Source: Nitrospiraceae bacterium (lineage in GTDB: Bacteria > Nitrospirota > Nitrospiria > Nitrospirales > Nitrospiraceae). From it: a stretch of 43,742 bases of DNA. A program made the translations under genes and the position numbers. The stretch is from contig JBBIQV010000006.1 in the NCBI GenBank assembly GCA_037442105.1, forward strand, positions 62,001 through 105,742, given 5' to 3'. A model generated the notes under the pieces. The model saw nothing but the letters and a program-made list of their open reading frames with translations, searched no databases and was not told where the DNA came from. Of this stretch, positions 1,001-34,765 are shown one piece after another; within the stretch, counting starts at the first letter, position 1; every line of letters begins with the position of its first letter.

Positions 1001-1072
1001 AGGCTATAGGCGATTGGCTATGGACTATAGGCAAGAACTGTCTGACCCATTGCCTATCGCCCATCGCCTAGC
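1001..1072. repeat. Inverted pair of heptamer tandem repeats (GGCTATA-like x4 / TATCGCC-like x4)
   Basis: ggctata-ggcgatt-ggctatg-gactata-ggc ... cccattgcctatcgcccatcgcctagc; overlaps the purL stop codon. Confidence 0.7.
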
Positions 1073-3309
1073 GCCCTCTCCAAGCTATGCGCCCATCGGT
1101 CATGTATCTGCACTACATCGAGGTCGATCCGGCAACCCGCGCCAGATCGAGTTGCCGCGACATCTATGACCAGCCGGTCACCACCAACGGTCCCGATTGC
1201 CTCAGCAGCGACGCCGGATTCGGCCGCCGCCTTCAGCACCGCCCTGTGCTGCTGGGCCGCCACCGAGAGGACCACGCGCGATTGACTTTCACCGAAGAGA
1301 AGCGAATCGCGCCTGATGTTGAGAGAGTGTAATTCTACCACAGCGCCGATCGGTTGGTCCGGGCCGGATATGCAGCATTCCGCCAAGGCCACAGCCAACC
1401 CTCCATCTGAGCAATCGTGAGCTGAACGCACCCTACCCTCCCGAATCAACTTCAGCACGCAGTCATGCAGTGCCTTCTCCGTCTCCAAGTTCAGGTATGG
1501 GGGCGAGCCCTGCTCCCGCGAATGCAACATCTTGAGATATTCCGTCCCTCCCAACTCGTCTTTCGTGGCCCCGAGGAGAAGGATCACGTCGCCATCCTGT
1601 TTGAACCACTGCGTCATTGCCCGATCGGCCTCGTCGATCAGGCCGACCATGCCGAGCATCGGCGTGGGATAGATAGAAAGCCCGTTCGTTTCGTTATAGA
1701 AACTCACGTTGCCGCTCACGATGGGAATGCCGAAATGCTCGCACGCGTCCTTCATCCCCTCGATTGCCAGCACGAATTGCCACATGATATCCGGCCTTTC
1801 GGGATTGCCGAAGTTCAGACAGTCTGTGAGCCCAATGGGCTCGGCGCCGGAACAGACGAGATTGCGAGCTGCCTCAGCCACCGCAATCTTGGCCCCTTCA
1901 TAAGGCTGGAGCAAACAATAGCGCCCGTTGCAGTCCACTGTCATGGCGAGCGCCTTGTTCGTACCCTTCACCCGGACCACTGCTGCATCCGAGCCGGGTC
2001 GAACCATCGTATTCGTTCGCACCATATGATCGTACTGCTCATAGACCCAGCGTTTGCTGGCGATCGTCGGCGACTCCAGCAGAGCGAGCAAGGCCCCGTT
2101 CACATCTTTCACATCGGGAATGGCATCGAAATTCAGCGACTGGAGAAATTCCTGATAGGCCGGCGGCGAGTAAGGCCGTTCGTAGCGCGGGCCTTCATCC
2201 GCCAGCGCCTTGGCGGGAATCTCGGCGACCACCTTGCCCTGGTCCTTCACGCGCAATATGCCGTCATTCGTCACCCGGCCCACCACCGCCACATCGAGAT
2301 CCCACTTCTTGCAGATCCGGATGCAGTCTTCTTCCTTGCCGGCCTTGGCGACCATCAACATGCGCTCCTGCGATTCGGAGAGCATTAGTTCGTACGGCGT
2401 CATGCCCGGCTCACGCCGAGGCACGTGGGTCAGGTCCAGCTCGACGCCGGTGCCCTCGCGCGACGCCATTTCGCAGGAGGAACTGGTCAGACCGGCGGCC
2501 CCCATATCCTGAATGCCGACCAGCAGATCACCCGCCATTAATTCGAGGCAGGCCTCCAGCAATAACTTCTCGGTGAAGGGATCGCCCACCTGCACCGTCG
2601 GTCGCTTCTGTTCGGATTTGTCGTCGAACGAATCGGACGCCATCGTCGCGCCGTGAATCCCGTCACGGCCCGTCTTCGACCCAAAGTAGATCACCGGATT
2701 GCCGACCCCGGCTGCTTTGCCCTTGAAGATCCTGTCCTTCTTCGCGATGCCGAGGCAAAACACGTTCACCAGCGGGTTCTGCGCGTAAATGTCGTTGAAC
2801 ACGACTTCACCGCCGACCGTGGGCACTCCCATGCAGTTCCCGTAACCCGCGATGCCGGCCACCACACCTTTCATCAGATGCCGATTCTTAGCCTGCTCCA
2901 GCCCACCGAAGCGCAACGAATCCAGCAACGCAATCGGCCGCGCGCCCATCGTGAAGATATCGCGCAGAATTCCGCCCACTCCTGTCGCCGCCCCTTGATA
3001 GGGCTCGATGAACGACGGATGGTTGTGCGACTCCATCTTGAACACGGCGCAGAGGCCGTCGCCGATATCGACTGCGCCGGCGTTTTCCCCTGGCCCCTGC
3101 ACCACGCGAGGTCCCATCGTCGGCAGCTTCTTCAAATGGACACGCGAACTCTTGTATGAGCAATGTTCCGACCACATGACCGAGAACATGCCGAGTTCCG
3201 TCAGATTCGGCTCGCGCCCCAGAATCTCGACGATCTTCTTGAACTCGTCGTCCGTCAGATTGTGCTGCGCGATGAGGTCTTTGGTAATTGAGACACTGTC
3301 TATCGCCAT
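1054..3309 (-). CDS. purL: Phosphoribosylformylglycinamidine synthase subunit PurL (small-type)
   Basis: 751 aa; motifs [37 protein letters not shown]. Confidence 0.98.
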
Positions 3310-3515
3310 TTCCTCACCATCTTTCGAACCTTTCTCTCAACATCTTTCTGGGACAGCACGCGACCAGCCTTTATGTCTTCCTCAGCATGCTCAATCTTCT
3401 GCCGCACGTAAATGTGATACTGGAGGTCTTCCCAGGTAAGATCATCCGGAAGGGCACTGAGCATTTTGACAAGCTCGGCTTTAACATTGGTTTTGGCCTT
3501 CACATTTCTCGCCAT
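3300..3515 (-). CDS. Small antitoxin-like protein of the type usually preceding a RelE/ParE toxin; orphan here
   Basis: [21 protein letters not shown]...[10 protein letters not shown] pattern; overlaps the purL start by 10 nt. Confidence 0.7.
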
Positions 3516-3518
3516 CTA

Positions 3519-3749
3519 CTAGACCTGTCCAAGTAATTCGAAGTATTCGTCCCGCGAGAGGCCCGCCGTGCGCAAATTGTTCTTGATGATGAACACCGGC
3601 ACTTCGTCCCAATCTGGGATCACAACAGGTCTTGCAACACCGGACTTCACATACACAAAGTGATCCCCTTCCGTCCTCACAAGCTTGAACCCGGCCTTCT
3701 CAAACACCCTTCGCAGCTTCGATGCCGGTATCGGAATGATGCGAGGCAT
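3519..3749 (-). CDS. hicA: HicA-family toxin
   Basis: 76 aa; GF..VRTEGDH..Y motif, V.IP, C-terminal AGLSRDEY; adjacent to a HicB-like gene. Confidence 0.85.
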   Translation of the reverse strand: MPRIIPIPASKLRRVFEKAGFKLVRTEGDHFVYVKSGVARPVVIPDWDEVPVFIIKNNLRTAGLSRDEYFELLGQV

Positions 3750-3753
3750 TGCT

Positions 3754-4023
3754 TTAGGCCGACAGCGACATCACTTCCGTCGACACAATACGAGGGGACT
3801 TCCACGCCCCATCGGTGGTGCGTTGGTAGCCCGCCTCTCTTAGAATATCGTCCAGCGTTCCCAACTTCTCCGCCTCTTCGATAAACAGACGGACGGAGGT
3901 CTTCAAGTTACGTCTTGCTTCGTCAACATCCCTTCCACAACTAGAGACATCCAACTCCGGACAGTGAGCCACATAGGCTTTGCCTTCCTGGAAAATAATG
4001 GCATCGAATTCAATGGGCTTCAT
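3754..4023 (-). CDS. hicB: HicB-family antitoxin
   Basis: YVAHCPELDVSSCG.D.DEA..NL partial RNase H fold motif. Confidence 0.85.
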   Translation of the reverse strand: MKPIEFDAIIFQEGKAYVAHCPELDVSSCGRDVDEARRNLKTSVRLFIEEAEKLGTLDDILREAGYQRTTDGAWKSPRIVSTEVMSLSA

Positions 4024-4154
4024 GAGTCACTCCCTTCAGTAACCGGAGACACCGGCTCCCCTCCGAGAATCTCGACGATCTTCTTGTACTCATCGTCCGT
4101 GAGATTATGCTGCGCGATGAGGTCTTTGGAGATCAGTTGATCGGATGATTTCAT
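4020..4154 (-). pseudogene. Truncated purL 5' copy 3 (44-aa mini-[37 protein letters not shown]...)
   Basis: Near-identical to purL codons ~8-34. Its ATG overlaps the upstream PIN gene stop (ATGA) and its TGA overlaps the hicB ATG (ATGA). Confidence 0.9.
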
Positions 4155-4516
4155 TGGCTCCTGTGCACCTTCCAAGGAATGATCTGTCCGCTTTCGAGCA
4201 GGTCAAACAACTTCTCGGAGCGCTGGCGAGTCATAAACTCTTGAAGAGCCTTAAACCAAATCTCGACTCTTCGCTGAATTGTCAGGTTCTGCCGCACACG
4301 TGAAATGATGACCGCGCCTCGCCAGTCGGTGTCCACGTCTCCGAACTCAGTATCCTGCGTGAGAAGAACGACCTCCTCTCTTGCCAGCCGTTTACGGATC
4401 TCTGAATCTTTCACACCGCGCAAACCCAGCGTGATGATATGCTCGGCATCATATCCCGCCGCTCGCAACCGATGGTAGAGCGGCAGCGGAAAATTCTCGT
4501 CCAATAGGAACTTCAA
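4151..4516 (-). CDS. DUF5615 / Mut7-C-type PIN-like toxin
   Basis: MKFLLDEN...GYDAEH...D.EI...VLLTQDTEFG; downstream of a DUF433 gene. Confidence 0.85.
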   Translation of the reverse strand: MKFLLDENFPLPLYHRLRAAGYDAEHIITLGLRGVKDSEIRKRLAREEVVLLTQDTEFGDVDTDWRGAVIISRVRQNLTIQRRVEIWFKALQEFMTRQRSEKLFDLLESGQIIPWKVHRSQ

Positions 4517-4743
4517 GAGGCCTGCTCAACCGCAGGCGGCACATGTTCGGCAACATGCGCGGCATAGCGAAGCGCGGCAAGAATCTGCTCTCTCGTGATG
4601 GCATAGGCGTCCTGCACCGCCTCGATACTCTCTCCTGCAGCCAGAGCCCCCACCACCGTCGCCACGTCGATACGCGTTCCTGTGAGACAAGGTTTCCCGA
4701 ATCTGATACCGGGGTCCATCGAAATGCCAGGAAAGACTTCCAT
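4513..4743 (-). CDS. DUF433 antitoxin
   Basis: I..DP.IRFGKPCL.GTRI.V..V...LA.G...I.AAL.YAA signature. Confidence 0.9.
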   Translation of the reverse strand: MEVFPGISMDPGIRFGKPCLTGTRIDVATVVGALAAGESIEAVQDAYAITREQILAALRYAAHVAEHVPPAVEQAS

Positions 4744-4753
4744 AGCTCCCCCT

Positions 4754-4882
4754 TCACATAATCGAGAACATGCCGAGTTCCGTCAGATTCGGCTCGCGCC
4801 CCAGAATCTCGACGATCTTCTTGTACTCGTCGTCCGTCAAATTATGCTGCGCGATGAGGTCTTTGGTGATCATGGCTTGCAT
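4754..4882 (-). pseudogene. Truncated purL 5' copy 2 (42-aa mini-[45 protein letters not shown])
   Basis: Matches purL up to FSVM. TGA stands where purL has TGG, and is followed directly by the RBS of the DUF433 gene. Confidence 0.92.
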
Positions 4883-4889
4883 CAGCAAT

Positions 4890-5249
4890 TCACTTCACGG
4901 TATGGCTCAAAAGACCAGACATTTCCAAGACCCGCTTCGACCAAACATTCGACCGCTCTGCAAGACGCTGCCGTTGTTCAAGATCAGTCCAGATACGGCT
5001 CCAGTTGTACTGCCACCGTGCAAGCTGTATTTGCAACACAACGAGTTCCTCCGCCGTGTGGCTCTCAGCTTCCGCCGCCGTCCATTCAATAAAGAACTTG
5101 CTCTCATCTATCAGACTTTCGACCGCTTCCCGGCTGGCGTCGTGCGCGGCAAACGACTTGATACGGCCCAAATTAGCCGCCAGCCCGCCCAGGCGGACGG
5201 GCAAATCGTCCCGCATATATCGCTCTCGAATCGCCGTCCAGTCTTTCAT
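4890..5249 (-). CDS. Hypothetical protein, partner of the DUF5674-like gene (possible TA component)
   Basis: 119 aa; ATGA overlap with the upstream gene; helical protein-like sequence. Confidence 0.7.
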
Positions 5250-5581
5250 GCGCCCCCCAGCAGTTGACGAACAATCCCGGCCACACGCTCGCGAAGAGCT
5301 GGGTCAAGAATCTCCAGCGAAGGATTGTTCTGACGAGGACGGATATTGATCAGCGATTCAAAGGTGACCTGTTGTGCAGCAGGGTTCCAATCCGCTCCCC
5401 ACACGTCTTCCTGGCGACTGCCATCTTCGATCAACACCGCCTCACAATCCGCGTGCAGCGTGCCACCACCAGCGAGAACACCACGTTGAATGTCCACCGC
5501 CAGCTTGATGTATGTAGCGAGCGCCTGGAGCATCTCTTTCATCTGTTGCTTGGTTGCATGAGCACGAACAAGATGAATCAC
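5246..5581 (-). CDS. DUF5674-family protein
   Basis: IKLAVDI..G.LAGGG.LHADCE..L...GS.Q..VWGA...FESLINIRP.QNN pattern. Confidence 0.75.
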   Translation of the reverse strand: MIHLVRAHATKQQMKEMLQALATYIKLAVDIQRGVLAGGGTLHADCEAVLIEDGSRQEDVWGADWNPAAQQVTFESLINIRPRQNNPSLEILDPALRERVAGIVRQLLGGA

Positions 5582-5733
5582 GACCCTGACGACCCGCCAC
5601 GAATCTCTCGCACGACGTCCGCCAGCGGGATTCCCTTTCCCTCATCAAGTTCGGCCAGCCCTGCGAGAAGGTCCGCCTCCTCCTCATGAGTCAGTGGCTC
5701 CAAGCGATCAATCGGCCCCATTGGTTCCATCAT
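5578..5733 (-). CDS. Short antitoxin-like protein or remnant
   Basis: LTHEEEADLLAGLAELDEGKGIPLADVVREIR resembles an addiction-module antitoxin C-terminus; start uncertain. Confidence 0.5.
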   Translation of the reverse strand: MMEPMGPIDRLEPLTHEEEADLLAGLAELDEGKGIPLADVVREIRGGSSGS

Positions 5734-5818
5734 GTGTTTCCCCATCAGAAATCTCGACGATCTTCTTGTACTCATCGTCCGTCAGATTATGTTGTGCGAT
5801 GAGGTTTTTGGCAATCAT
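5708..5818 (-). pseudogene. Truncated purL 5' copy 1 (36-aa mini-[26 protein letters not shown]...)
   Basis: ~70 nt similar to purL codons 8-30, then diverges. Confidence 0.88.
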
Positions 5819-5827
5819 TGGTCAAGG

Positions 5828-6997
5828 CTACTTTAGCAGGTACTTCGACAGATCTATTTCGCCAAATCCCTTCTTTCTTCTGAGAACCAATTTCTCACCG
5901 TCGTGTCGAATGCTCACATGCCAATAGAACCTATCTTCCAGTTGAGTGGTCCACATTCCTTCAAGCCAGCGAGTGAAGTCTTGAAAGGGAATGAGCAAAA
6001 CGATGCTCTCTGAGCCGCAACCGTAGGCAACATACCCTTCTCTTGCAGCTTCCAGTCTCTCCTTTTGGTGAGGATGAAACGCGTACCAATACATTTCTCT
6101 TGTGTGAGTTCTCGAAACGGCGCAGACAACCACTAACGCTCCGTCAGGAGAACTAAAAGTTGCGCGCGTTTGCTTAACCAGGGAACGACCGAGAAACTTT
6201 TCAATGCGGTCAATACATGCTCCATGGAAATCAACAGGAACGAATTGGGGTGCTGGTTTGTCTTTTTTCCTCGGTGTGTCCTCTTGAACTTCAGCCTCTG
6301 CAACGTCTTGTTGAATTTCCTCCGCCGCAGAAAAGACCAAATCGATGATCCCGTCAACTTTGGTGAATTCTTGCGGCACCAAAATCCCGACTATCTTTTT
6401 CAATATTTGCGGATCCTCAACCGTTTCCTTGAGGAACATCAACCGAACCAACGCATCAACGCTGATTAAACGAATATCCCATGCGTGCCTCGATCCGCGA
6501 ATTTGTGCTTCGAGATCACCTGTATCTTGCCTGCCAACAACAACCAAGATAGAAGACTTCGCTTCGCTTGCCTTACCTTCCTGGATAAGCCTTTTTCTAT
6601 ACTCAGCAATGGCATCGAGGCCTACGCGGTAGGCATCGGTTGTCTTGACCTCAACAATAATCTCACTCCCAAGTGATGATCTCCATAGGCCATCGTGTCC
6701 ACTTTGGCCTGAACTGCCGCGATATCTGCCATCTTCCACTTGAAATCCGAGCCGGCGCCCAATTTGATTCACAACATCTTGAAGGGCATACCCACTGCCA
6801 TCAAATTTTTCAGTGAGACATTCCTCACCATAACGAGCAAGAAGAGCCGAGGGAATGTGCGAGAGAAAATCACGAAATTCTCTAGAGGCATCGCCCCCAT
6901 CAAGGAGCTTTCCAGAGCCAGCAATAGCTATAATTTGTTGAACTTGCTTGCCTTCAAGTTGTGCTCTTGATTTGCCCCACAGATCAAAAAGAGGCAT
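5828..6997 (-). CDS. Putative PD-(D/E)xK restriction-endonuclease-like protein
   Basis: 389 aa; HDGLW...IIVEVKTTD catalytic-like motif; visibly more AT-rich than the pur genes. Confidence 0.65.
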   Translation of the reverse strand: MPLFDLWGKSRAQLEGKQVQQIIAIAGSGKLLDGGDASREFRDFLSHIPSALLARYGEECLTEKFDGSGYALQDVVNQIGRRLGFQVEDGRYRGSSGQSGHDGLWRSSLGSEIIVEVKTTDAYRVGLDAIAEYRKRLIQEGKASEAKSSILVVVGRQDTGDLEAQIRGSRHAWDIRLISVDALVRLMFLKETVEDPQILKKIVGILVPQEFTKVDGIIDLVFSAAEEIQQDVAEAEVQEDTPRKKDKPAPQFVPVDFHGACIDRIEKFLGRSLVKQTRATFSSPDGALVVVCAVSRTHTREMYWYAFHPHQKERLEAAREGYVAYGCGSESIVLLIPFQDFTRWLEGMWTTQLEDRFYWHVSIRHDGEKLVLRRKKGFGEIDLSKYLLK

Positions 6998-7015
6998 GAA
7001 TGTGTCCCCTACGTT

Positions 7016-7741
7016 CTAGTGAGCCACGGCAGGTTTCGGTTGCAGCATCGCCCTTTTCGCCCCCTCCAACATCGAGAGGAAGATCAGCCGCCCGTCCTCG
7101 TTCCCCAGCGCCTCCTCCGCGCACCGTTCCGGATGCGGCATCATGCCGAGCACGTTGCCGGCTGCGTTGCGAATGCCGGCGATGTTGTCGAGCGAGCCGT
7201 TCGGGTTCGCTTCCGGCGTCACCTTGCCCTCCGGCGTGCAGTAGCGGAAGACGACCTGCGCGTTGGCTTGCAATCCTGCCAGCGTCACCGGGTCGGTGTA
7301 GTAGTTGCCGTCCGCATGGGCGATCGGAATTTTCAGCACTTGGCCAGATTCGTACTGACCCGTGAACGGCGTGGCCGCGTTCTCGACCTTCACACAGACG
7401 TCTTTGCAGATAAAGTGCAGCGAACGGTTGCGCAGCATCGCTCCCGGCAGGAGCCCTGCTTCCAGCAGAATTTGAAACCCGTTGCAGATGCCGAGCACGA
7501 GGCCGCCATCGTCGGCAAATTTCTTCACCGCCCCCATGACCGGCGAGAACCGCGCGATGGCCCCCGTCCGTAGATAGTCCCCGTAGGAAAACCCGCCCGG
7601 CAAGATCACGCCATCGAGGCCGGTCAGGGAGGTCTCCTTGTGCCATACCATCGTCACGTCTTGCCCGAGCACGTTCTTAAACACATGCTCGCAATCGTGA
7701 TCGCAGTTAGAACCGGGAAACACCACCACGCCGATGTTCAT
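7016..7741 (-). CDS. purQ: FGAM synthase glutaminase subunit PurQ
   Basis: [33 protein letters not shown]. Confidence 0.98.
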
Positions 7742-7782
7742 CTCTTCCTCTCCCAGCTACCACGATCAGGCAGGCCAGTAAT

Positions 7783-7899
7783 GGGGCAACAGGGCTTGAC
7801 TCTACTGCGCGCATCGAACGAGCACTCCAACCTTTTTGATGAACCTTGAGATGGATTGAGTGCGCGTTCTGCGAGCACGGAGGCAAGCCCTGTCGCCCC
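7783..7899. repeat. Structured intergenic element, copy A
   Basis: Outer stem GGGGCAACAGGGCTTG/CAAGCCCTGTCGCCCC enclosing CTGCGCGCATCGAACGAGCAC...GTGCGCGTTCTGCGAGCAC. Confidence 0.8.
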
Positions 7900-7911
7900 G
7901 TATCCTTACCA

Positions 7912-8151
7912 TCACTGCAACTCGTACCTATACTCTTCAATGATCGTATTCGCCAACAGCTTCTCGCACATCTGCTTCACCTCAGCCTCCGCCCTGGCCT
8001 TATCCTGCTCGTTCACATCCAATTCCATGTACTTCCCGACCCGCACGTTTCCCGCATTCTTGAACCCCAGCGAATCGAGCGCATGCTCGATCGCCTTTCC
8101 CTGCGGATCGAGAATGCCTTGTTTGAGCGTGACATGGATTTTCGCTTTCAC
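7912..8151 (-). CDS. purS: FGAM synthase subunit PurS
   Basis: LDPQG.AI, VRVGK, LLAN.IIE.Y motifs; upstream of purQ. Confidence 0.96.
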   Translation of the reverse strand: MKAKIHVTLKQGILDPQGKAIEHALDSLGFKNAGNVRVGKYMELDVNEQDKARAEAEVKQMCEKLLANTIIEEYRYELQ

Positions 8152-8162
8152 GAGTGATGCTC

Positions 8163-8372
8163 CTATTGCGGTGACTTATTCAGCCTATCGATGTATTTTC
8201 TGATCTTGAGAATGCCTCCCACGGTGGCAATGCCTCCTGCCGCTAACGCAAGGAACGCCCAGCGCCAGGGTGAATCGTCCAAGCGATAGGCCATCATGCC
8301 GACGACCGCAGCCCACACCAGCACCGCCGCTACCAATCCGTAATTCAGAAAGAGCTGAAGAAACCTCTTCAC
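8163..8372 (-). CDS. Small two-TM membrane protein of unknown function
   Basis: Two hydrophobic segments; GA-rich RBS; fills the purC-purS gap. Confidence 0.7.
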   Translation of the reverse strand: MKRFLQLFLNYGLVAAVLVWAAVVGMMAYRLDDSPWRWAFLALAAGGIATVGGILKIRKYIDRLNKSPQ

Positions 8373-8420
8373 TCTTTTCCTCCCTCACCCCCTCTAAGAA
8401 TTTGGGATGCGTTCTGTTGT

Positions 8421-8515
8421 CGAGAGGTTGGGGTTGGTCTCCCCTGCGCGCGTCCAACGAGCACCCGTCTGCGGGTGCGGGTTGCGCGAGCACAGAGACC
8501 AATCCCAGCCTCTTG
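8421..8515. repeat. Structured intergenic element, copy B
   Basis: Outer stem GAGAGGTTGGGGTTGGTCTC/GAGACCAATCCCAGCCTCTT; core CTGCGCGCGTCCAACGA-GCACCCG-TCTG-CGGGTGC-GGGTTGCGCGAGCAC. Confidence 0.8.
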
Positions 8516-8523
8516 GCATCTTC

Positions 8524-11658: not shown

Positions 11659-11752
11659 AGGAGTGGCTGGGATGATCTCTTGCTGCGCGCATCGACCGAG
11701 CACCTTCTGAGGTGCGGGGTCTGCGAGCATAGAGATCATCCCAGCCGCTCCT
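11659..11752. repeat. Structured intergenic element, copy C
   Basis: Outer stem AGGAGTGGCTGGGATGATCTCT/AGAGATCATCCCAGCCGCTCCT; core CTGCGCGCATCGACCGA-GCACCT-TCTG-AGGTGC-GGGGTCTGCGAGCAT. Confidence 0.8.
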
Positions 11753-21948: not shown

Positions 21949-24210
21949 ATGAGCGCATCCAGAGAACAGCTCCTCGATCACCTCACCCCGCTCTGCCGGG
22001 GAATCGGAGGGGACGTCCTTCGCGATTTCGTGTCGCGGATGGACATGGATTACTTCGAGCGCTTCACGCCAGAGGAGATCGCGCGGCACATTGAGCTGGC
22101 CGACCGGCTCGACCTCGACCACCCATGCCAGATCCTGGTAACGCAGCGGCCGGACCGTCGCATCGACATCGTCGTCGTTGCTTACGACTACTTCTCCGAG
22201 TTCGCGACGATCTGCGGCCTGCTCTCGGCATTCGGCCTGAACATTGAAGAGGGTCGAATCTATACCTTCGCTGATGCGGCTCCGTCGCAACGTCCACCGA
22301 CCGGATGGCCGCCACGCGCTCTCCCGAAAACGCGGGCCGGGTTGAGCCGCAAGAAGATCGTAGACCTGTTTCGAGTCCGTCCCGTCGAAGGTACCGCCTT
22401 CTCTTCCACCGAACAGCGCCGATTGGGCGAAGAGCTGGCCCATATGGTGCAGATCCTCGATGCCGGCAAATTCGAGGAGGCTCGCCACCACGTCAATCGG
22501 CAATTGGTGGAACGGCTTGGAAAACAGCGGGCGACGTTCCGTGGGCTGCTTCAACCGGTCCAGATCGCGTTCGACAACAGCCAGTCCCCGACGGACACGA
22601 TTGTGGACATCCGATCGGACGACACCCCGGCCTTTCTCTATGCCTTCGCCAATGCGCTGGCCATGCGCAACGTGTACCTTACCAAGGCGCAGTTCGAGAA
22701 CGTCGGCACCAAGCTTCATGATCGCTTCTTCGTGCGGAACCGCTTCGGCCAGAAACTGGTGGACACCAAAGATCAGCAGCAGCTTCGGTTCACGGCTGCG
22801 CTTATCAAACAGTTCACCCAGGCATTGACGTGGGCGCCCGATCCCGCCAAAGCCCTCGAAGCCTTCGATCAGTTCCTCGATCTCACCGTGCAAGAGACCA
22901 AAGGCAAGGCCAAAAAACAGGCTCTCGCGTTGCTCAGCAACAAGAAAAGCTTTCCGCTCCTCGCGCGATTGTTCGGAGCGAGCGACTTCCTGTGGGAAGA
23001 TTTTCTTCGCCGCCAGCACGGAAATTTACTGCCGCTCCTTCAGGACTATCGCGATGCGCCGCTGGTCAAACCGCAGGCATCGCTCCGTAAAGAACTCGAT
23101 CACCTTCTGGCCCTGGCCAAGACTGAAGCCGCGCGGAAAGAGACGTTGAACCGGTTCAAAGACCGCGAGCTCTTCCGGATCGATATGAAACACATCGTCG
23201 AGCCCTCGACCAGTCTGGCCGATTTCTCTCTAGCCCTGACCGAGCTGGCCGAGGTGATCGTAAGCCACAGCCTGAAAGACTGCCGGGCCAAGCTGGAGAA
23301 GGCCTACGGTGTCCCTCGCCTGGCGAACAAGAAGCTCTGCCCGTTTTCGATTTTGGGAGCGGGCAAGTTCGGCGGCAGGGAACTCGGCTATGCTTCCGAT
23401 ATCGAAGTGCTGTTCGTGTATGGAGGGCCGGGACACACCAGCGGCAAGCAGGCCATCGAGAACAGCGAATATTTCGAACGCCTCGCGCAGGAACTCTTGC
23501 AGTGGATCGAGGCGAAGCAAGAAGGCATCTTCCACATCGACGTGCGCCTCCGCCCCCACGGCGGCAAGGGCTCACTGACGAACCCGCTCGACGAAATCAC
23601 CAGCTACTACAGTCCTGAAGGGCTGGCCGCGCCATTTGAGCGACAAGCGTTAATCAAGCTTCGCCACGTGGCGGGAGATGTCGCACTCGGCAAAGAAGTC
23701 GAAGCCCATCGCGACCGCTACGTCTACAGCGGGGCACCATGGGACCTCGCCGCCGCCCTCGATCTTCGCCGTCAGCAGATCAAGCAGCTCGTCGAGCCTG
23801 GAACGGTCAACGTGAAACACAGCACCGGCGGACTCGTCGATATCGAATATGCCGTGCAGTACTTCCAGGTGATGCACGGTCATAAGCACGCCGGCTTACG
23901 GACGCCCAACACGATGCAAGCGCTGGCGGAACTCGTGGAGCGCGGCATTGTGAATCGGCAGGACGGCGAGAATCTACGGAAGGCCTACTTTTTCCTTCGC
24001 ATGTTGATCGACGGCCTGCGCATGGTGCGGGGCAACGCGAAGGATTTAGTGCTGCCCCCGCCTGAGTCCGACGAGTTCATCTTCCTCGCCAGGCGCGTGG
24101 GTTACACGACGGAGGATTGGCAAGCAGGAGCGAGGCATTTGCAAGCGGATATTGAGCAACACATGACCGCCACCAAGAATTTCTTCGAACGGATGTTCGG
24201 TCAGCTCTGA
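21949..24210 (+). CDS. Second GlnE-family adenylyltransferase with an N-terminal ACT-like region
   Basis: GAGKFGGRELGYASDIEV, IDVRLRPHG, FERQALIK, VK...GGLVDIEY; N-terminal segments resemble GlnD ACT domains. Confidence 0.8.
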   Translation: MSASREQLLDHLTPLCRGIGGDVLRDFVSRMDMDYFERFTPEEIARHIELADRLDLDHPCQILVTQRPDRRIDIVVVAYDYFSEFATICGLLSAFGLNIEEGRIYTFADAAPSQRPPTGWPPRALPKTRAGLSRKKIVDLFRVRPVEGTAFSSTEQRRLGEELAHMVQILDAGKFEEARHHVNRQLVERLGKQRATFRGLLQPVQIAFDNSQSPTDTIVDIRSDDTPAFLYAFANALAMRNVYLTKAQFENVGTKLHDRFFVRNRFGQKLVDTKDQQQLRFTAALIKQFTQALTWAPDPAKALEAFDQFLDLTVQETKGKAKKQALALLSNKKSFPLLARLFGASDFLWEDFLRRQHGNLLPLLQDYRDAPLVKPQASLRKELDHLLALAKTEAARKETLNRFKDRELFRIDMKHIVEPSTSLADFSLALTELAEVIVSHSLKDCRAKLEKAYGVPRLANKKLCPFSILGAGKFGGRELGYASDIEVLFVYGGPGHTSGKQAIENSEYFERLAQELLQWIEAKQEGIFHIDVRLRPHGGKGSLTNPLDEITSYYSPEGLAAPFERQALIKLRHVAGDVALGKEVEAHRDRYVYSGAPWDLAAALDLRRQQIKQLVEPGTVNVKHSTGGLVDIEYAVQYFQVMHGHKHAGLRTPNTMQALAELVERGIVNRQDGENLRKAYFFLRMLIDGLRMVRGNAKDLVLPPPESDEFIFLARRVGYTTEDWQAGARHLQADIEQHMTATKNFFERMFGQL

Positions 24211-24304
24211 GTCAGTAGAGTAGCAGGTCTCTCGCAGCCTCAGCCCTCGACCTACAGTTTGCACACAGGCCTAGCCTTCTATTAATGATCCGATTGCGAC
24301 CGAT

Positions 24305-24357
24305 ATTCGGCTCACGTTATAAGAAAATGTGAGCCGAATCGGCTATAATTCGGTTCA
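24305..24357. promoter_or_regulatory. Putative operator upstream of the Fic gene
   Basis: Inverted repeat ATTCGGCTCAC-N13-GTGAGCCGAAT plus a third half-site ATTCGGTTCA at the start codon; TATAAT at ~24344. Confidence 0.55.
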
Positions 24358-25457
24358 TGCCTTACAACTGGCAGCAAGAAGGCTGGCCCCAATTCCGATA
24401 CGACCTATCCGGCGTTGAAGACGTCTTATTTGCGTTTACTGAGAGAGCCGGTCGTGCGAGCGGACTCCTGAAAGGGTTGACAGCCGACGCGCAGACGGAA
24501 GCCTCAATTGAACTGATGGTGGTGGAAGCCGTCAAGACCTCCGCAATCGAAGGGGAACTGTTGAGCCGGAAAGATGTGATGTCGTCTATCCGGAACAATC
24601 TCGGCCTGGCCCCCGAGGCGCCGGGCGGAGACAAACGGGCGGCAGGGGCCGCGGCTCTGATGATCGATGTCCGCAACAGTTTTGCGGCGCCGCTTTCCGA
24701 GGAGATGCTGTTCGACTGGCACCGGATGATTATGCAGGGCCACCGGCATGTCGCAGCCGGCCAGTGGCGGACGCACGCCGAACCGATGCACGTGGTGTCC
24801 GGGCCGGTGGGACATGAACGGGTACATTTTGAAGCGCCGCCGTCGTCGCACATTCCCAAGGAGATGGCACGCTTCATCCAGTGGTTCAATGGCACCGCCC
24901 CGGGCGGGAATGCGGAGATTCGGAAAGCGCCGGTGCGCGCGGCTGTGGCCCATCTCTATTTCGAGTCGATCCATCCATTCGAAGACGGCAATGGCCGCAT
25001 CGGCAGAGCTTTGTCCGAAAAGGCGTTGTCGCAGGGGCTTGGACGACCGGCCCTGTTGAGCCTGTCCAGGGTCATTGAAGCAAAACGGAAGGAGTACTAC
25101 GACGCGCTGAAGGAAGGGCAGCAGTCGAACGAGATCACGCCCTGGATCATGTGGTTTGTCCACATGGTGCTGGAGGCGCAAGTCCAGGCCGAAGAACTGA
25201 TCGAGTTCACACTCAAGAAAACCAGACTGTTCGAACGGTTTCGCAATCAGCTCAACGAACGGCAATTGAAAATTCTCCGCCGCATGCTCGAAGAAGGCCC
25301 AACGGGTTTCGAAGGCGGCATGAGCGCCAAGAAATACATGTCGATCACGGGAACGTCCAAAGCAACGGCCACGCGCGACTTGCAGGACCTGGCAGACAAG
25401 GGAGTGTTCGTGCCTGCCGGCGGCGGCCGAAGCACGCATTACAAGGTCAACTTGTAG
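24357..25457 (+). CDS. Fic-family protein (DUF4172-like N-terminus, C-terminal HTH)
   Basis: Canonical HPFEDGNGRIGR motif; YNWQ...WP.F.Y N-terminus; SKATATRDL.DL. Confidence 0.93.
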   Translation: MPYNWQQEGWPQFRYDLSGVEDVLFAFTERAGRASGLLKGLTADAQTEASIELMVVEAVKTSAIEGELLSRKDVMSSIRNNLGLAPEAPGGDKRAAGAAALMIDVRNSFAAPLSEEMLFDWHRMIMQGHRHVAAGQWRTHAEPMHVVSGPVGHERVHFEAPPSSHIPKEMARFIQWFNGTAPGGNAEIRKAPVRAAVAHLYFESIHPFEDGNGRIGRALSEKALSQGLGRPALLSLSRVIEAKRKEYYDALKEGQQSNEITPWIMWFVHMVLEAQVQAEELIEFTLKKTRLFERFRNQLNERQLKILRRMLEEGPTGFEGGMSAKKYMSITGTSKATATRDLQDLADKGVFVPAGGGRSTHYKVNL

Positions 25458-25480
25458 GAAGAGTTGATCGGCGTAAAATG

Positions 25481-25652
25481 AAGGGTTTGGTACTCCCGCC
25501 GGCCGATTCCGACAAGTTCATCTTCCTCGCCCGCCGCGTCGGCTATACCACCGACGACTGACAGACGGGGGCTAGGCAGTTGGAGACGGATATTGGGGGA
25601 GCATATGAAAAGAGTGCGTGAGTTTTTCGAACGATCGTTTGGGAAATTATAG
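25481..25652 (+). pseudogene. Degenerate duplicate of the 3' end (24040-24210) of the glnE-like gene
   Basis: Reads KGLVLPPADSDKFIFLARRVGYTTDD*QTGARQLETDI/EHMKRVREFFERSFGKL* versus KDLVLPPPESDEFIFLARRVGYTTEDWQAGARHLQADIEQHMTATKNFFERMFGQL*; one stop and one +1 frameshift. Confidence 0.9.
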
Positions 25653-25777
25653 GGAGGCGGGAGCATCATATTTGGTCGCCGGAAACCCATACGTCCTCCA
25701 CCTGCCTCCCCATCGCCTCTTGACCCGGCCGCCTGTTCAGCATAGTATCGACACCGTCTCTACATTGAGAACGGTGC

Positions 25778-30904: not shown

Positions 30905-32662
30905 ATGCAAGAAGTGGTACTCTTTGTCCGCCCGGTCCCCGCACGAGCGCATACGTGGTTGGGTCACCCGATGAAGCGTCAGACAGCCATTCCACTTATT
31001 AGTCTCTTCTCTGGCCCCGGGGGACTGGATCTGGGATTCCGGCGAGCCGGGTTCAAGACAGTACTCGCGATCGACTCCAATAAGGCAGCCGTAGAGACTT
31101 ACAATCGGAATACCCGGCCTGCCGTAGCCCAACAATGCGATCTTAATGCGCTTCAGAAAGAGACTCTTATATCGATGCTTAGGAAAGCATCACCAGGCCA
31201 GGTCCCTCGCGGAGTTATTGGTGGACCACCCTGTCAGAGTTTTTCTTTGGGAAATGTGCGGAAAAAGCGGCACGACCGGAGGTCGCGCCAGGGCTTGGTC
31301 TTTGCGAGATTGGTGCAAGCATTGAATCAGGAGTTCGGACTTGACTTTTTTCTCTTCGAAAATGTCGTTGGCCTTCGGACATCCCGCCACAGGAACCGCT
31401 TTAAGGCTATCTTGCGGGAACTGCGCAAGGCAGGATTCAATTTGTTCGTCCAGGAACTCGACTGTGGCGCATTTGGAGTGCCACAGCGGCGTCGGCGCCT
31501 GATCGTTGTGGGGATCAACCGCGCAAAGTACCCATGGGTGAAGTTCGAGTTCCCAATCGGCTCTGCCCAGCCTGCGACTGTGCGTGATGTAATAGGCGGG
31601 TTGCCTCGGCCCACCTTTTATCGTCGCGGACTCAAACCGCGTGATATCCCATTTCATCCTAATCACTGGACTATGAATCCCCTGTCGCGGAAGTTCCGCA
31701 ACGGCATCTTCGGAAACGGCCGCTCCTTCAAGAAATTGGATTGGAAGAAGCCCAGTTACACTGTTGCCTATGGAAACAGGGAGATACATGTCCATCCGGA
31801 TGGACATCGCCGGCTTAGTGTCTTGGAGGCGATGCTCCTGCAGGGCTTCCCCCGCACCTATCAATTTCGAGGCACCCTAAGCGATCAGATAACCCAAGTC
31901 TCCGATGCGGTTCCACCTGCTTTGGGAGAGGCCATTGCGCGAGCCATCAAGCTGTCCATCTACTCCCCGATTACCGTGCTACAGGCCTCCCTCCTAGGGT
32001 GGTTCAAGCAAAAACAGCGGCGCTTCCCATGGCGGCAAACACGCGACTCATTCCGCGTGTTGTTGGCCGAGAAGCTGTTGCAGCAAACGGCTGCTACCCG
32101 AGCGGTCGTCAGAGCTTTCCGAGAGATAGTTAGGCGTTACCCAAGCTGGGCCGCGTTGGCGGAAGCGCCAAAACAGGAACTGAAGCGAATCGTGGCACCC
32201 TTGGGATTCGCCTATCGCGCTGTTGAGCTCCGGCACCTGGCACGCGCAATCGTCCAGCGCCACGGGGGGAGGGTGCCGCCAAATCTGAAGAGCCTGCTGG
32301 GACTACCTGGTATTGGCGACTACTCCGCACGAGCCGTGATCTCCTTTGCGTTCAGGCAGCCATTCGCGGTCGTCGACACTAATGTTGCACGCTTCCTCGT
32401 ACGGTATTTCGGGCTAAAGCTACGCTTGACGCAAAATCCTGCCCGTGACCGCCGACTGCAACGCATTGCTGACGCAGTTGTGCCGCCAGATGCCTCACGA
32501 GATTTCAACCTTGCTGTGCTCGACCTGTGCGCTTCTCACTGCAAGGCAAGGCAGCCGGAGTGCAACACTTGTCCCGTCCGAGCCCAATGCGCTTACTGGA
32601 ACATGAATGTGAGGGGCGCTGCGGTTACACTCTCCCGAGTCAGCGCGGGCGTGACCAAATAG
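30905..32662 (+). CDS. C5 DNA methyltransferase fused to a HhH-GPD [4Fe-4S] DNA glycosylase (DruM-like)
   Basis: MTase motifs FSGPGG, GGPPCQSFS, FENV, Q.R.R, RRLSVLEA..LQGFP; then FPWR, E.LLQQT, LPGIGDY, VDTNVAR, C-x6-C-x2-C-x5-C; start may be ATG 30971. Confidence 0.9.
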   Translation: MQEVVLFVRPVPARAHTWLGHPMKRQTAIPLISLFSGPGGLDLGFRRAGFKTVLAIDSNKAAVETYNRNTRPAVAQQCDLNALQKETLISMLRKASPGQVPRGVIGGPPCQSFSLGNVRKKRHDRRSRQGLVFARLVQALNQEFGLDFFLFENVVGLRTSRHRNRFKAILRELRKAGFNLFVQELDCGAFGVPQRRRRLIVVGINRAKYPWVKFEFPIGSAQPATVRDVIGGLPRPTFYRRGLKPRDIPFHPNHWTMNPLSRKFRNGIFGNGRSFKKLDWKKPSYTVAYGNREIHVHPDGHRRLSVLEAMLLQGFPRTYQFRGTLSDQITQVSDAVPPALGEAIARAIKLSIYSPITVLQASLLGWFKQKQRRFPWRQTRDSFRVLLAEKLLQQTAATRAVVRAFREIVRRYPSWAALAEAPKQELKRIVAPLGFAYRAVELRHLARAIVQRHGGRVPPNLKSLLGLPGIGDYSARAVISFAFRQPFAVVDTNVARFLVRYFGLKLRLTQNPARDRRLQRIADAVVPPDASRDFNLAVLDLCASHCKARQPECNTCPVRAQCAYWNMNVRGAAVTLSRVSAGVTK

Positions 32663-32664
32663 AA

Positions 32665-34764
32665 ATGGCCATGGAAGATTTAACCTATTACGTGTTCGCA
32701 GGCTTCGCGCTCATAGTAGCGGCCGGGTTTGCCATTAGGGCATTGAGGCGGCGTAAGCTCGATGAAAGGGCGGGCCAGCCCCCTGCATCAGATCAACGCG
32801 CGCCGACAGAGCCGCCCAGCGAGGCTGATGAGAGCTTAGAGAGAACTGAAGAGCGGCCTTCTCTTCATGCAAGAATTCCGAGCGTCGGGGGCGCAGCTAG
32901 GCAGGGGCAGGCGGCACAGGCCTCTCTTGCGGTGGAGCCAGAGCGAGTACCCTCGTTAGATTCTGGTGCTATTGAGCCTTGCGAGTCCCACGCCGCCAGC
33001 ACTGAGCATTCCGAGGTGCAACCTTCCGAATCGCCAGGTCCTCTCGATGTTCAGTCAACTCCTGCTGCCTCAGCACTCGAAGCCAAGGACGACAAATCAC
33101 AGGAACCCCGAAGCTCCGTGACCGCTGGTGCTCAGCTCCGCGAAGAGCCCAAAATAGAGATGGTGGAACCGGTTCCTGTCCGCGACACAGCCGAGTTGGG
33201 ATTCACACAACCTCTGCCAGAGCCAGTCGTCCCAACCAAAGCGCAGACTGAGCCAATCGAGCCGCACCCTATCGGAGAACAGGAACCGACACGCGAACTA
33301 GGTCCGGCTACATTGCATACTGCTGGCGCTCTGATGCCACCGCCAGAATCCAAAGCTGAGCCGACGCCTGCCCCCTTGACGGAACAAGGACAGGAAAGCG
33401 AAAGCACGTTTGGCAACCAGATGGCGATGCAAGCAGGCCGCCGTCCGGCGCGGTACCGTCCACCTCCTGCCAGACCTCCCGGACCACGAACGGCTGAACC
33501 GAGAGAGACACGCCCACCCCAGCATGGACTGCCGTTGGAGATACGCTTGCAGGCGCACCCGGACCGGCATGATTTCTGCTCATTCAGGCTGCTCGCCCAA
33601 CGTCCAGAGGGTTCACTTCCCGAGTTGGAGGCGCGCGGGAGTGACGGGGCTGTGAGACTCATCGAGTCCGGTGATGATTGGTATGAAATTGCGACGGAAC
33701 GCGACTTAAGTGCTTGGCTCTCAAACGGCATTGTTCTCATGGAGAAGGAGCGCGGTGAGCCGCGACTGAGCTGGCAGCTAAGTCGCCGAGATGTCCATGT
33801 GCTTGCTGGGCAACCAGGCGCTGGGCTTGTTTCGACCACCCGTTTGTGCATTGGGCGAAAGCACTTGGTCCTCTGCCGGGCTAGTCGTGCAAGCGAGGTT
33901 TCTGACGTTCTGGCCGGGGCGGGGTGCGGTTCTCTTTCGGCGTGTTCGGAAGAATTCGGAGCCCCTCCGGGCTGGGTTTTCTTCTGGCCGGTCATCCCCC
34001 TTCATCCTCTGACTCCAACGCCAGGGGACGACATCCTGAATGTGTTGCGTCCTCAACCCGAACTTGAGTTGGCCTTGGAGGGTGGTCTATGGTTGCGCGA
34101 TTCCACATGGCTCGCAGGTTACCCACCGCAGATTAGGGTGACCGGCGTACACCCACTGGAAGCCGTCGTTTCCATTGACGGCCAGCCTGCGCAGAAGACT
34201 GAAGACGGAAGCTACATAAGCCCGGGGCATGACCAGCCGGGAGACCACCTGGTCTGGTGCGCAGGCAAATCACGGAGTTATTCACTTTGCACACCAGAAG
34301 TTCCTCGGGAGAGTTGGGAATCATACAGTTTTCCTGGCGGAACCCTCTGCGGCGCTTCCGCTTCGCCCCGTGTCGACGTAACCCGGCCACCGGTCACTGT
34401 GCCCACATCGAATCCGCTGCTCATCGGGCCCGTCCCAGGTCAGGTCTTCCTGTGTCCGGCAGGAGTCGTTACCGAATGGACAGGATTTGTTCCATTCCAA
34501 GTTGCATGGGCTCTACCTTCTGACCCGCTTCATTGCGACCGCTCGTCATGTCACGTGCTGCTGGTCACGCAGGTTTCGCCAGTGCGTGCATTGCCGCCTG
34601 CGGTGCGCCGGTCCGCCATCGCCAGCGCACAACGACGTTGGTGCCAGGCCATTCGCGATTGCCGAAGGAAGGGGCTGACCGCTACGCCTCCCACCCCCCA
34701 AATTGAGGCCCTTTGGACCGCCTACGCCGCGCAAGCGAGAGCCCTGTGGAGGAGACTCAAGTAG
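32665..34764 (+). CDS. Hypothetical protein in the DruF position; N-terminal TM helix and Pro/Glu-rich linker
   Basis: Operon position between the MTase and the DruG-like gene; hydrophobic YYVFAGFALIVAAGFAI; globular C-terminal region. Confidence 0.65.
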   Translation: MAMEDLTYYVFAGFALIVAAGFAIRALRRRKLDERAGQPPASDQRAPTEPPSEADESLERTEERPSLHARIPSVGGAARQGQAAQASLAVEPERVPSLDSGAIEPCESHAASTEHSEVQPSESPGPLDVQSTPAASALEAKDDKSQEPRSSVTAGAQLREEPKIEMVEPVPVRDTAELGFTQPLPEPVVPTKAQTEPIEPHPIGEQEPTRELGPATLHTAGALMPPPESKAEPTPAPLTEQGQESESTFGNQMAMQAGRRPARYRPPPARPPGPRTAEPRETRPPQHGLPLEIRLQAHPDRHDFCSFRLLAQRPEGSLPELEARGSDGAVRLIESGDDWYEIATERDLSAWLSNGIVLMEKERGEPRLSWQLSRRDVHVLAGQPGAGLVSTTRLCIGRKHLVLCRASRASEVSDVLAGAGCGSLSACSEEFGAPPGWVFFWPVIPLHPLTPTPGDDILNVLRPQPELELALEGGLWLRDSTWLAGYPPQIRVTGVHPLEAVVSIDGQPAQKTEDGSYISPGHDQPGDHLVWCAGKSRSYSLCTPEVPRESWESYSFPGGTLCGASASPRVDVTRPPVTVPTSNPLLIGPVPGQVFLCPAGVVTEWTGFVPFQVAWALPSDPLHCDRSSCHVLLVTQVSPVRALPPAVRRSAIASAQRRWCQAIRDCRRKGLTATPPTPQIEALWTAYAAQARALWRRLK

Positions 34765-34765
34765 T

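Follow-up and report, generated by a model that had tools for sequence, protein, structure and literature searches.

The purQ-purL interval

The subject of this study is an array of small genes lying between purQ and purL in a window of 43,742 nucleotides (the whole stretch of DNA that was analyzed) from a Nitrospiraceae bacterium (assembly GCA_037442105.1, contig JBBIQV010000006.1, positions 62,001 to 105,742). The minus strand of the window reads purS-purQ-purL-purF, and the purQ-purL interval contains nine genes, small or lacking annotation, along with three purL 5′-end copies. In transcription order and window coordinates, the features are as follows.

7016..7741, minus strand: purQ, the conserved upstream flank (GATase_5, E 2.5e-43)
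5828..6997, minus strand: 389-aa solo gene in the first slot after purQ, without a preceding purL fragment; probable PD-(D/E)xK nuclease
5750..5818, minus strand: purL 5′ copy 1; start MI, purL nt 22-87
5578..5733, minus strand: atxS, small antitoxin-like gene by predicted function, head of module 1
5246..5581, minus strand: DUF5674 gene (PF18924, E 2.5e-41)
4890..5249, minus strand: 119-aa hypothetical gene, partner of DUF5674; its 3′ flank provides an MQA-type purL start
4754..4882, minus strand: purL 5′ copy 2; start MQAMI, purL nt 22-137, ending just before the DUF433 ribosome-binding site
4513..4743, minus strand: DUF433 gene, antitoxin-type partner (PF04255, E 7e-20)
4151..4516, minus strand: DUF5615/PIN gene (PF18480, E 1e-17; PIN_10), its stop overlapping the start of copy 3
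4020..4154, minus strand: purL 5′ copy 3; start MKSSDQLI, purL nt 22-102, its short frame stopping on the hicB start
3754..4023, minus strand: HicB-like antitoxin, assigned by its position beside HicA and a motif
3519..3749, minus strand: HicA toxin (PF07927, E 3.4e-10)
3300..3515, minus strand: atxA, 71-aa antitoxin-like gene that overlaps and provides the live purL start
1054..3309, minus strand: intact purL, 751 aa; nt ~22-87 form the shared joint

The interval is filled with modules of toxin-antitoxin (TA) type that the three purL 5′ copies set apart. Pfam support among the cargo is limited to HicA, DUF5615/PIN, DUF433 and DUF5674, as an earlier reading made from the letters alone (the sequence-only reading) had labeled them; the remaining labels are predictions. 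That reading's HicB, antitoxin-like and nuclease labels found no Pfam match, nor did the 119-aa gene, and those of these genes that were scanned had no NCBIfam or PADLOC match; a PDB sequence search with atxA was likewise without a match. For the 389-aa gene, a PD-(D/E)xK nuclease is probable from a D..EVK motif and a weak atlas lead to FokI/Mrr_cat (0.84-0.86). Its GC content is 0.47 versus 0.59 for the genome, and it takes the same slot in G177 and G233 (here and below, G handles denote genomes, with G000 the window's own; C handles, contigs of G000; and L handles, loci). A promoter and terminator scan of 3200-8300 was uninformative (5 promoter-like and 2 terminator-like sites versus 2.6 and 4.2 by chance), an Rfam scan of the window gave 0 matches, and none of the data sets listed as holding the stretch was RNA.

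Homology of the three copies to the live gene spans 5750-5815 (89.4% over 66 bp) for copy 1, 4755-4870 (94.8% over 116 bp) for copy 2 and 4058-4133 (89.6% over 77 bp) for copy 3, with E values of 3e-18 to 5e-47 in a whole-genome search that found no further purL 5′ copies in the 2.8-Mb assembly. The sequence-only reading had described three such copies with their own first codons, different end points and shared cat-aat and gag-tac, all of which stood; it had also placed them correctly, except that its figures were those of the short reading frames that hold the copies and not of the homology itself. The homology begins at codon 8, and the first seven codons differ (MI in copy 1, MQAMI in copy 2, MKSSDQLI in copy 3 and MAIDSVSI in the live gene), just as they do among the live purL genes of relatives. 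For copy 2, the nearest of 69 live purL starts is that of its own genome. Where the copies have cat-aat and gag-tac, the live purL of the window has cac-aat and gag-ttc. The shared Tyr codon was considered as a sign of a single donor and rejected: at the gag-tac codon, Tyr is the rule in the family (found in 69 of 75 live purL genes, with 5 Phe and 1 unread), and therefore it is the window's live gene that deviates, and the shared letters are no sign of a common donor.

Soundness of the assembly

The most mundane alternative is that strain variants with one module each were chained during assembly through their shared purL start. G000 is an assembly of 62 contigs (87% complete), and the genomes with two or more purL matches include no single-contig genome, both of which fit such an artefact. 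Three sequencing runs contain 90-95% of the words of the stretch (runs X1 and X2 seem to be a single data set, and one holder of the stretch may be the source). All four cargo blocks are present in the run contigs at ~99-100% identity and at even depth (8.3-11.2 in X1, 6.6-10.8 in X3); these contigs break inside the repeats, as an artefact would also have it, so that the block order is not proven by them, and the listed joints that skip the array in the run data derive from divergent contigs. The order is, though, identical in G029, a genome of a different genus that carries the same three modules at 82-85% identity. Moreover, the copies are separated by many substitutions and are decayed in relatives, and 9 of the 75 intervals mapped below contain 2-4 fragments. 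The array is not a plain mis-assembly, an outcome that the sequence-only reading had named as refuting it, and chaining of variants strikes us as highly improbable.

Variation of the interval among relatives

The 75 mapped intervals comprise the window, 34 of the 40 loci of a first set (dropped were one locus starting inside purL, three empty sites of another family and two without purQ upstream) and all 40 loci of a second set. Since 28 of the latter were chosen for two or more purL matches, the sample is enriched for fragments. In 71 of the 75, purQ lies 5′ of purL, and the remaining 4 stop at a contig edge; the purQ-purL gap ranges from 29 to 9,982 bp (71 intervals) and is below 200 bp in 13. 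This enriched sample holds 51 purL fragments in 39 of 75 intervals (none in 36, one in 30, two in 7, three in 1 and four in 1), with ends that range from purL nt 47 to 154. A less biased figure comes from the 231 family genomes that have a purL-start match, 41 of which have two or more. For this tally, three candidates were scored per genome and the unpublished G006 and G093 are included; the two matches of G238 are full copies on different contigs, the second matches of G035, G093, G129, G131, G241 and G263 are not placed upstream of purL, and the fragments in G021, G267 and G271 were missed by the search.

Module number, identity and order all vary, with 18 gene pairs found in both orders, much as the sequence-only reading had foreseen for such a comparison. 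It had also held that cassettes lacking purL fragments would speak against it, and this is partly the case, because many modules come without one. The recurrent TA-type cargo pool of the mapped intervals consists of HicAB, DUF433/DUF5615, MNT/HEPN, ParE and its partners, DUF4258/DUF2283 and Phd/RelE, and the solo defence or repair cargo of Mrr, GmrSD, AbiJ-like, AbiTii and pyrimidine-dimer glycosylase genes. The first slot after purQ is taken in relatives by Mrr, GmrSD, AbiJ-like, AbiTii, GIY-YIG and several unannotated genes. Every recurrent cargo match (225 of 225) is co-oriented with purL.

Three side observations belong here. In G008, a purL fragment is interrupted by a 187-bp insert between nt 87 and 92 (L033 910-1211). 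In G016, the target is a gene of the cargo pool: copies of the 5′ end of the pyrimidine-dimer glycosylase gene flank the DUF5674/119-aa pair (L045 1268-1334 and 2037-2105). Finally, many relatives have a spacer of 180-350 bp after purQ, perhaps a second anchor for homology; by eye it resembles the long imperfect palindromes that occupy intergenic positions 7783-7899, 8407-8520 and 11659-11752 of the window, which have 4, 19 and 27 genome-wide BLAST matches, respectively.

The repeat as the joint between modules

Across genera, every module opens with a fixed head of purL fragment, junction and first gene and closes with a fixed tail, the purL start codons that belong to it. The heads after 44 of the 51 fragments are MNT1 (11), HicB (10 mapped copies), atxS (7 mapped copies), DUF433 (6), DUF5674 (3), the glycosylase (3), DUF4258 (2) and others (2), each with its own junction sequence that is common across genera; for copy 1, G029 shows the same junction and downstream gene. 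At the other end, the start codons go with the upstream gene: MQA after the 119-aa gene (which precedes a purL start in 9 mapped cases, 7 of them copies and 2 live), MA(L/I)(E/D)S after atxA (in G000, G123, G197 and G219; relatives of atxA sit before ParE in other genomes), a bare MI overlapping the stop of ParE, and MK-type after DUF5615 and small46. The start that belongs to a module is found on the live purL if the module is last and on a fragment if another module follows. This agrees with the proposal in the sequence-only reading that the unit is cargo plus a replacement purL start.

The same switch is seen in pairwise identities, with the caution that the pairs come from related genomes and are not independent. 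Over purL nt 1-21, mean identity is 0.58 when the upstream gene is shared (232 pairs) versus 0.32 for 2,742 others, and sharing the downstream gene makes little difference (0.32 versus 0.31). Over nt 88-140, mean identity is 0.48-0.49 when the downstream gene is shared (115 pairs) versus 0.25-0.29 (579). Fixed heads, fixed tails and this switch of linkage together make the conserved purL nt ~22-87 the joint. Heads are found in many combinations: HicB after DUF5615, Mrr, the pyrimidine-dimer glycosylase and small46, and MNT1 after nuc389, the glycosylase, c51, M23, small46 and purQ.

Gains and losses are on record. The fragment of G272 carries the native start context of G009, its empty genus-mate, which documents a gain with the old start left upstream, as the sequence-only reading had it; six mapped copies lie directly after purQ. 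Conversely, G005 is empty yet has a ParE-type start, a recorded loss. That reading had also called for comparing fragments with purL alleles. Ranked against 69 live starts, the fragments lean to the purL of their own genome (median rank 5, top 10 in 19 of 29 ungapped fragments). The purL tree has 25 of 68 branches open (the core values of G099 and G201 are artefacts of chimeric or truncated sequence and were ignored). Transfer across genera is indicated by comparing cargo with purL for two cases: G123 against genus g18 (HicB 0.90-0.92 and HicA 0.91-0.95, against 0.81 for purL) and G000 against G029 (119-aa gene 0.92 versus purL 0.82). Besides this organism, run X3 contains a contig end that agrees with G029 sequence next to a fragment (30 of 30 letters, by eye).

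These data bear on a passive account, in which the fragments are scars of a few old illegitimate joins and the region moves as a whole between purQ and purL, in the style of a minimal mobile element, and shrinks by deletion, with no reuse of the repeats. Junction types are indeed few, old and common across genera, G000 and G029 retain three modules in one order, cargo identity often follows the host, and many modules have no fragment. Scars that are never reused do not account well, however, for one head following many different upstream genes, for a linkage switch inside the repeat, or for the 18 order reversals, and we regard this account as unlikely.

Proposed mechanism

The comparison shows modular structure, a joint in the repeat, gains, losses and reordering, with no linked recombinase and with unrelated targets. 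The reading that we favor, and consider reasonably likely, is that successive insertions with long target duplication, none needing an integrase, built up the array, and that host recombination keeps it modular. The birth of a unit would be rare: donor cargo lying just before purL would be linked by an illegitimate join to some position within the purL 5′ end of the recipient, and on the other side a homologous join to purL would leave that gene intact and using the start after the cargo. The old purL start plus 50-150 bp would then stay upstream. In empty sites, less than 200 bp separate the end of purQ from purL, so that a join placed farther upstream would disrupt purQ; the duplicating joins would be the ones retained by selection. 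With purL sequence on both sides of a unit, a RecA-type crossover in nt ~22-87 could insert, delete or reorder units at any purL start or fragment, via a linear donor or a looped-out circle, both giving one product. Spread of this kind is supported by the comparison as a probable route. G123, with a live purL of host type from nt 22 and a fragment and cargo of g18 type, favors a single short crossover, though as one case; a sliding-window search found no clear long donor tract in the live purL of G123, G000, G029 or G272. Because the cargo shares the orientation of the pur operon, with overlap between several stop codons and the start that follows, we suppose that it uses the host pur transcript, and TA addiction or phage defence would oppose its loss. 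As for enzymes, RecA and DprA are present in G000, ComEC is present in 23 of 24 family relatives (a tally that includes the unpublished G006), and Ku (end joining) was not found in G000 at its 87% completeness.

Several points weigh against this reading. Neither a recombination event nor a circle, a within-population variant or present-day expansion or contraction was observed for this strain, and contigs are unable to reveal circles or variants that are rare. For RecA, repeats of 66-116 bp that are 88-95% identical make modest substrates, and ComEC was not found in the 87% complete G000. No fragment exists in 36 of the 75 intervals, many of which have cargo, and some of the order reversals concern genes with no intervening fragment; hence exchange also uses other homologies. 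Cargo identity correlates with host purL for most genes (r about 0.3-0.8, with four near zero or negative), and mean cross-genus cargo identity is below core identity, so much of the inheritance is vertical or within genus; module turnover looks slow, with cargo identity mostly tracking the host genus. Moreover, two integron-type integrases are encoded elsewhere in G000, on contigs C39 and C1; the integron integrase (IntI) has a slightly higher frequency among genomes with two or more purL matches (7 of 40 versus 14 of 191, Fisher p 0.064; distribution surveyed in 251 genomes); and the fragments that retain a left end all share nt ~22-47, where a fixed crossover may lie.

Recombinases and the integron question

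The last of these points lead to a further alternative: that circular cassettes are inserted at a fixed site near purL nt 22-47 by a site-specific recombinase, trans-acting or since lost (an island integrase, Xer or an integron integrase), which would make the fragments remnants of att sites. The common core in most fragments, the IntI encoded in G000, the host-type purL of G123 from nt 22 beside its g18-type fragment and cargo, and a DUF5674/119-aa cargo between what by eye are attC-like repeats (L155) all favor this. Set against it, no IntI above the cut-off exists in 33 of the 40 genomes with two or more matches, and no recombinase was found in any interval examined. In agreement with the sequence-only reading, the scanned window open reading frames (ORFs) gave no integrase or transposase match (ORFs below 170 aa outside 3.3-8.4 kb were mostly unscanned), the window's contig had no PF00589 match, G000 (87% complete) had no PF00239 (serine recombinase) match, and the 115 scanned interval ORFs included no tyrosine or serine recombinase, although insertion sequence genes are present. 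Targets are both 5′ and 3′ gene ends, and 14 target ends have no convincing common motif (the best 6-mer occurs in 7 of 14 and is equalled by 9 of 200 shuffles; 8-mers are at chance). As to an attC-like fold, the folding energy of the repeat is no better than that of other purL windows; no attC covariance model was run. A site-specific recombinase of this kind is, in our estimate, quite improbable.

On the location and distribution of IntI, the folding and the motif sharing, we rejected an integron as the main mechanism, and the earlier description of the array as integron-like is not supported, there being no adjacent IntI and no attC-like fold. Integrons and clusters of attC sites lacking integrases (CALINs) do share with the purL array short co-oriented modules that are rich in TA genes and an overlapping cargo pool; the array differs in having no adjacent integrase, no attC-like hairpin, a repeat made of host coding sequence and module-specific end points. 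Two observations stand beside this comparison. The G000 integrases (L211 1653-2930 and L212 from about 1850) have an N-terminal extension of about 110 aa and lie near contig ends; one directly follows riboflavin synthase, and cassettes are not visible. The attC-like repeats of L155 (851-957, 2440-2475 and 3245-3354) suggest that the cargo pool overlaps with that of integron cassettes.

Integrase-bearing islands that restore gene 5′ ends, and additive islands at tRNA 3′ ends, supply a replacement gene end, leave the old end as a direct repeat and accrete in tandem. The purL array differs from them in that no integrase was found in the examined intervals (115 ORFs), in its units of 0.4-1.5 kb and in its many unrelated target genes.

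Relation to known systems

The sequence-only reading knew of no named system of this form, but the basic event does have a precedent. PMC2853133 (Furuta, Abe and Kobayashi 2010) describes restriction-modification (RM) genes inserted with long, variable target duplications and no other mobile element, mostly in competent species; the duplicated repeats often span a start or stop codon, and a virus-like cycle is proposed there, with release and reinfection unproven. The account is restated for RM systems in PMC3874152. The purL array resembles the insertions of PMC2853133 in having inserts below 20 kb (units of 0.6-0.9 kb), long and variable direct repeats above 30 bp (66, 116 and 77 bp, with ends at nt 47-154) that are absent elsewhere in the genome, no other mobile element and an intact target gene. 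Empty sites exist in relatives (13 of 71 intervals below 200 bp; empty G009 and filled G272 are of one genus, not the same species). It differs in its cargo, mainly type II TA-type pairs and solo defence genes (the array has one putative solo nuclease, and no insert with both R and M genes); in the serial nature of the insertions, with up to 4 fragments, reordered across the family; in repeats that are 88-95% identical versus 44/46-47/47 in some table rows of PMC2853133; and in that every module comes with a host-gene start of its own. An insert that fits the RM class directly is the BsoBI-type RM insert at the 3′ end of a dipeptidase gene on G000 contig C1.

Minimal mobile elements, as defined for Neisseria in PMC3787668, have variable content between conserved flanking genes, exchanged by natural transformation and homologous recombination in the flanks with no integrase. 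The purL array likewise has variable content and no integrase between its conserved flanks; those elements replace between flanks, whereas the internal start copies of the array permit stacking and reordering. Homology-facilitated illegitimate recombination, a homologous anchor plus an illegitimate join, explains arrays of type VI secretion system (T6SS) immunity genes and Rhs orphans in PMC5361080 and PMC2884548, where ordered arrays later spread by ordinary recombination, as proposed here. In the T6SS and Rhs arrays of those sources, a conserved region of the toxin serves as anchor and the previous effector is displaced; in the purL array, the anchor is the end of a housekeeping gene, nothing is lost and the target is duplicated. 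The product geometry of the array is compatible with that mechanism.

The pattern is real and recurrent, and its best reading is a serial, TA-loaded form of long-target-duplication insertion, not an integron. The precedent from RM insertions caps the surprise. A search that left most subscription papers outside turned up no published account of serial TA arrays, whether at purL or in Nitrospiraceae, and supplements (for example Supplementary Figure 7 of PMC2853133) may hold serial cases. PMC2654758 describes the fixation of horizontally acquired TA systems as not understood, and the array bears on how chromosomal TA and solo defence genes move with no transposase or integrase nearby. One locus offers dozens of natural states, whether empty, with one unit, with up to four fragments or reordered, and with module-specific junctions and starts; it also yields a search rule for new defence genes, namely to look in the interval between a gene end and its orphan copy.

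Other gene ends as targets

A self-comparison of G000 (1,746 crude gene calls) returned 43 rows that pair a section of a long ORF with an orphan copy ≤12 kb away. Fifteen of the rows represent 11 genes, including purL, and all 11 enclose TA, Fic, restriction or defence-like cargo. Copies of 5′ ends lie upstream of purL, an hsdM (three copies), a B12 radical-SAM gene, a YtnP-like lactonase gene and a PhoB-like regulator gene, and copies of 3′ ends lie downstream of a GlnE-like gene, the dipeptidase gene, uvrA, another hsdM, an aminopeptidase-like gene and an unannotated gene. The remaining 28 rows (11 with opposite geometry), judged by eye and not all singly, look like palindromic intergenic repeats, paralogous domains or false ORFs. 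The scan for duplicated gene ends flanking TA genes that the sequence-only reading had suggested was thus productive, and the ten further G000 genes, along with other genes in other phyla, count against its view of purL as a special landing pad.

Among these is a mirror case within the window.

24039..25653, plus strand: GlnE-like mirror case, with the GlnE-like gene at 21949-24210, Fic at 24357-25457 and a decayed copy of the gene's 3′ end at 25480-25653

The 3′ copy is 75.9% identical over 116 bp, and the GlnE-Fic-GlnE′ layout recurs in G018. Downstream of the copy lie mazE and a truncated mazF-like frame, and a third scrap of the GlnE-like gene end is found in a TA cluster at G000 C3:37598-37732.

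Beyond G000, the 119-aa gene has 80 related loci across several phyla. Eleven are beside purL (these probably overlap the mapped set and are not counted as independent), 27 are bracketed by a repeat, and in 7 of the 69 non-purL loci the repeat is the end of the neighboring gene, the target sequences being unrelated.

L143 3621-5823, Chloroflexota: monooxygenase (ABM) 5′ end repeated
L161 53-4367, Chloroflexota: four monooxygenase (ABM) 5′ copies between TA modules, an architecture as in the purL array, with no intact gene on the contig
L159 and L168: ABC-ATPase 3′ ends repeated
L171, Armatimonadota: glycoside hydrolase 3′ end repeated
L153 and L169: unannotated 3′ ends repeated

A bolder idea, which we offer as tentative and on balance doubtful, is that of an enzyme-free mobile class: TA and small defence modules whose sole address would be a segment of some conserved host gene end, complete with a functional start or stop, and which would loop out as a circle and re-enter by one crossover. 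Operon gene ends would then be general, ordered capture sites across Nitrospirota, Chloroflexota and Armatimonadota, which is part of the same tentative idea.

Some further loci have related layouts. At L072 (G000 C53:1900-4213), three hsdM 5′ fragments are separated by a nucleotidyltransferase-like gene (by eye), a 46-aa cargo family also present at purL, and a Fic gene. At L081 2404-5158 (G000 C29), four TA-type modules lie between two 127-bp copies (94%) that start at an ABC-transporter stop codon and extend into a palindromic intergenic element. In an Anaerolineae locus (L139 4252-9441), TA genes after transketolase are separated by at least 6 copies of a 150-430 bp non-coding repeat, which has a promoter-like motif and is not a gene end. 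Elsewhere in the window, positions 30905-41187 hold a defence-like cluster with a fusion of C5 methyltransferase and HhH-GPD glycosylase domains, two unannotated genes and a 1,836-aa helicase.

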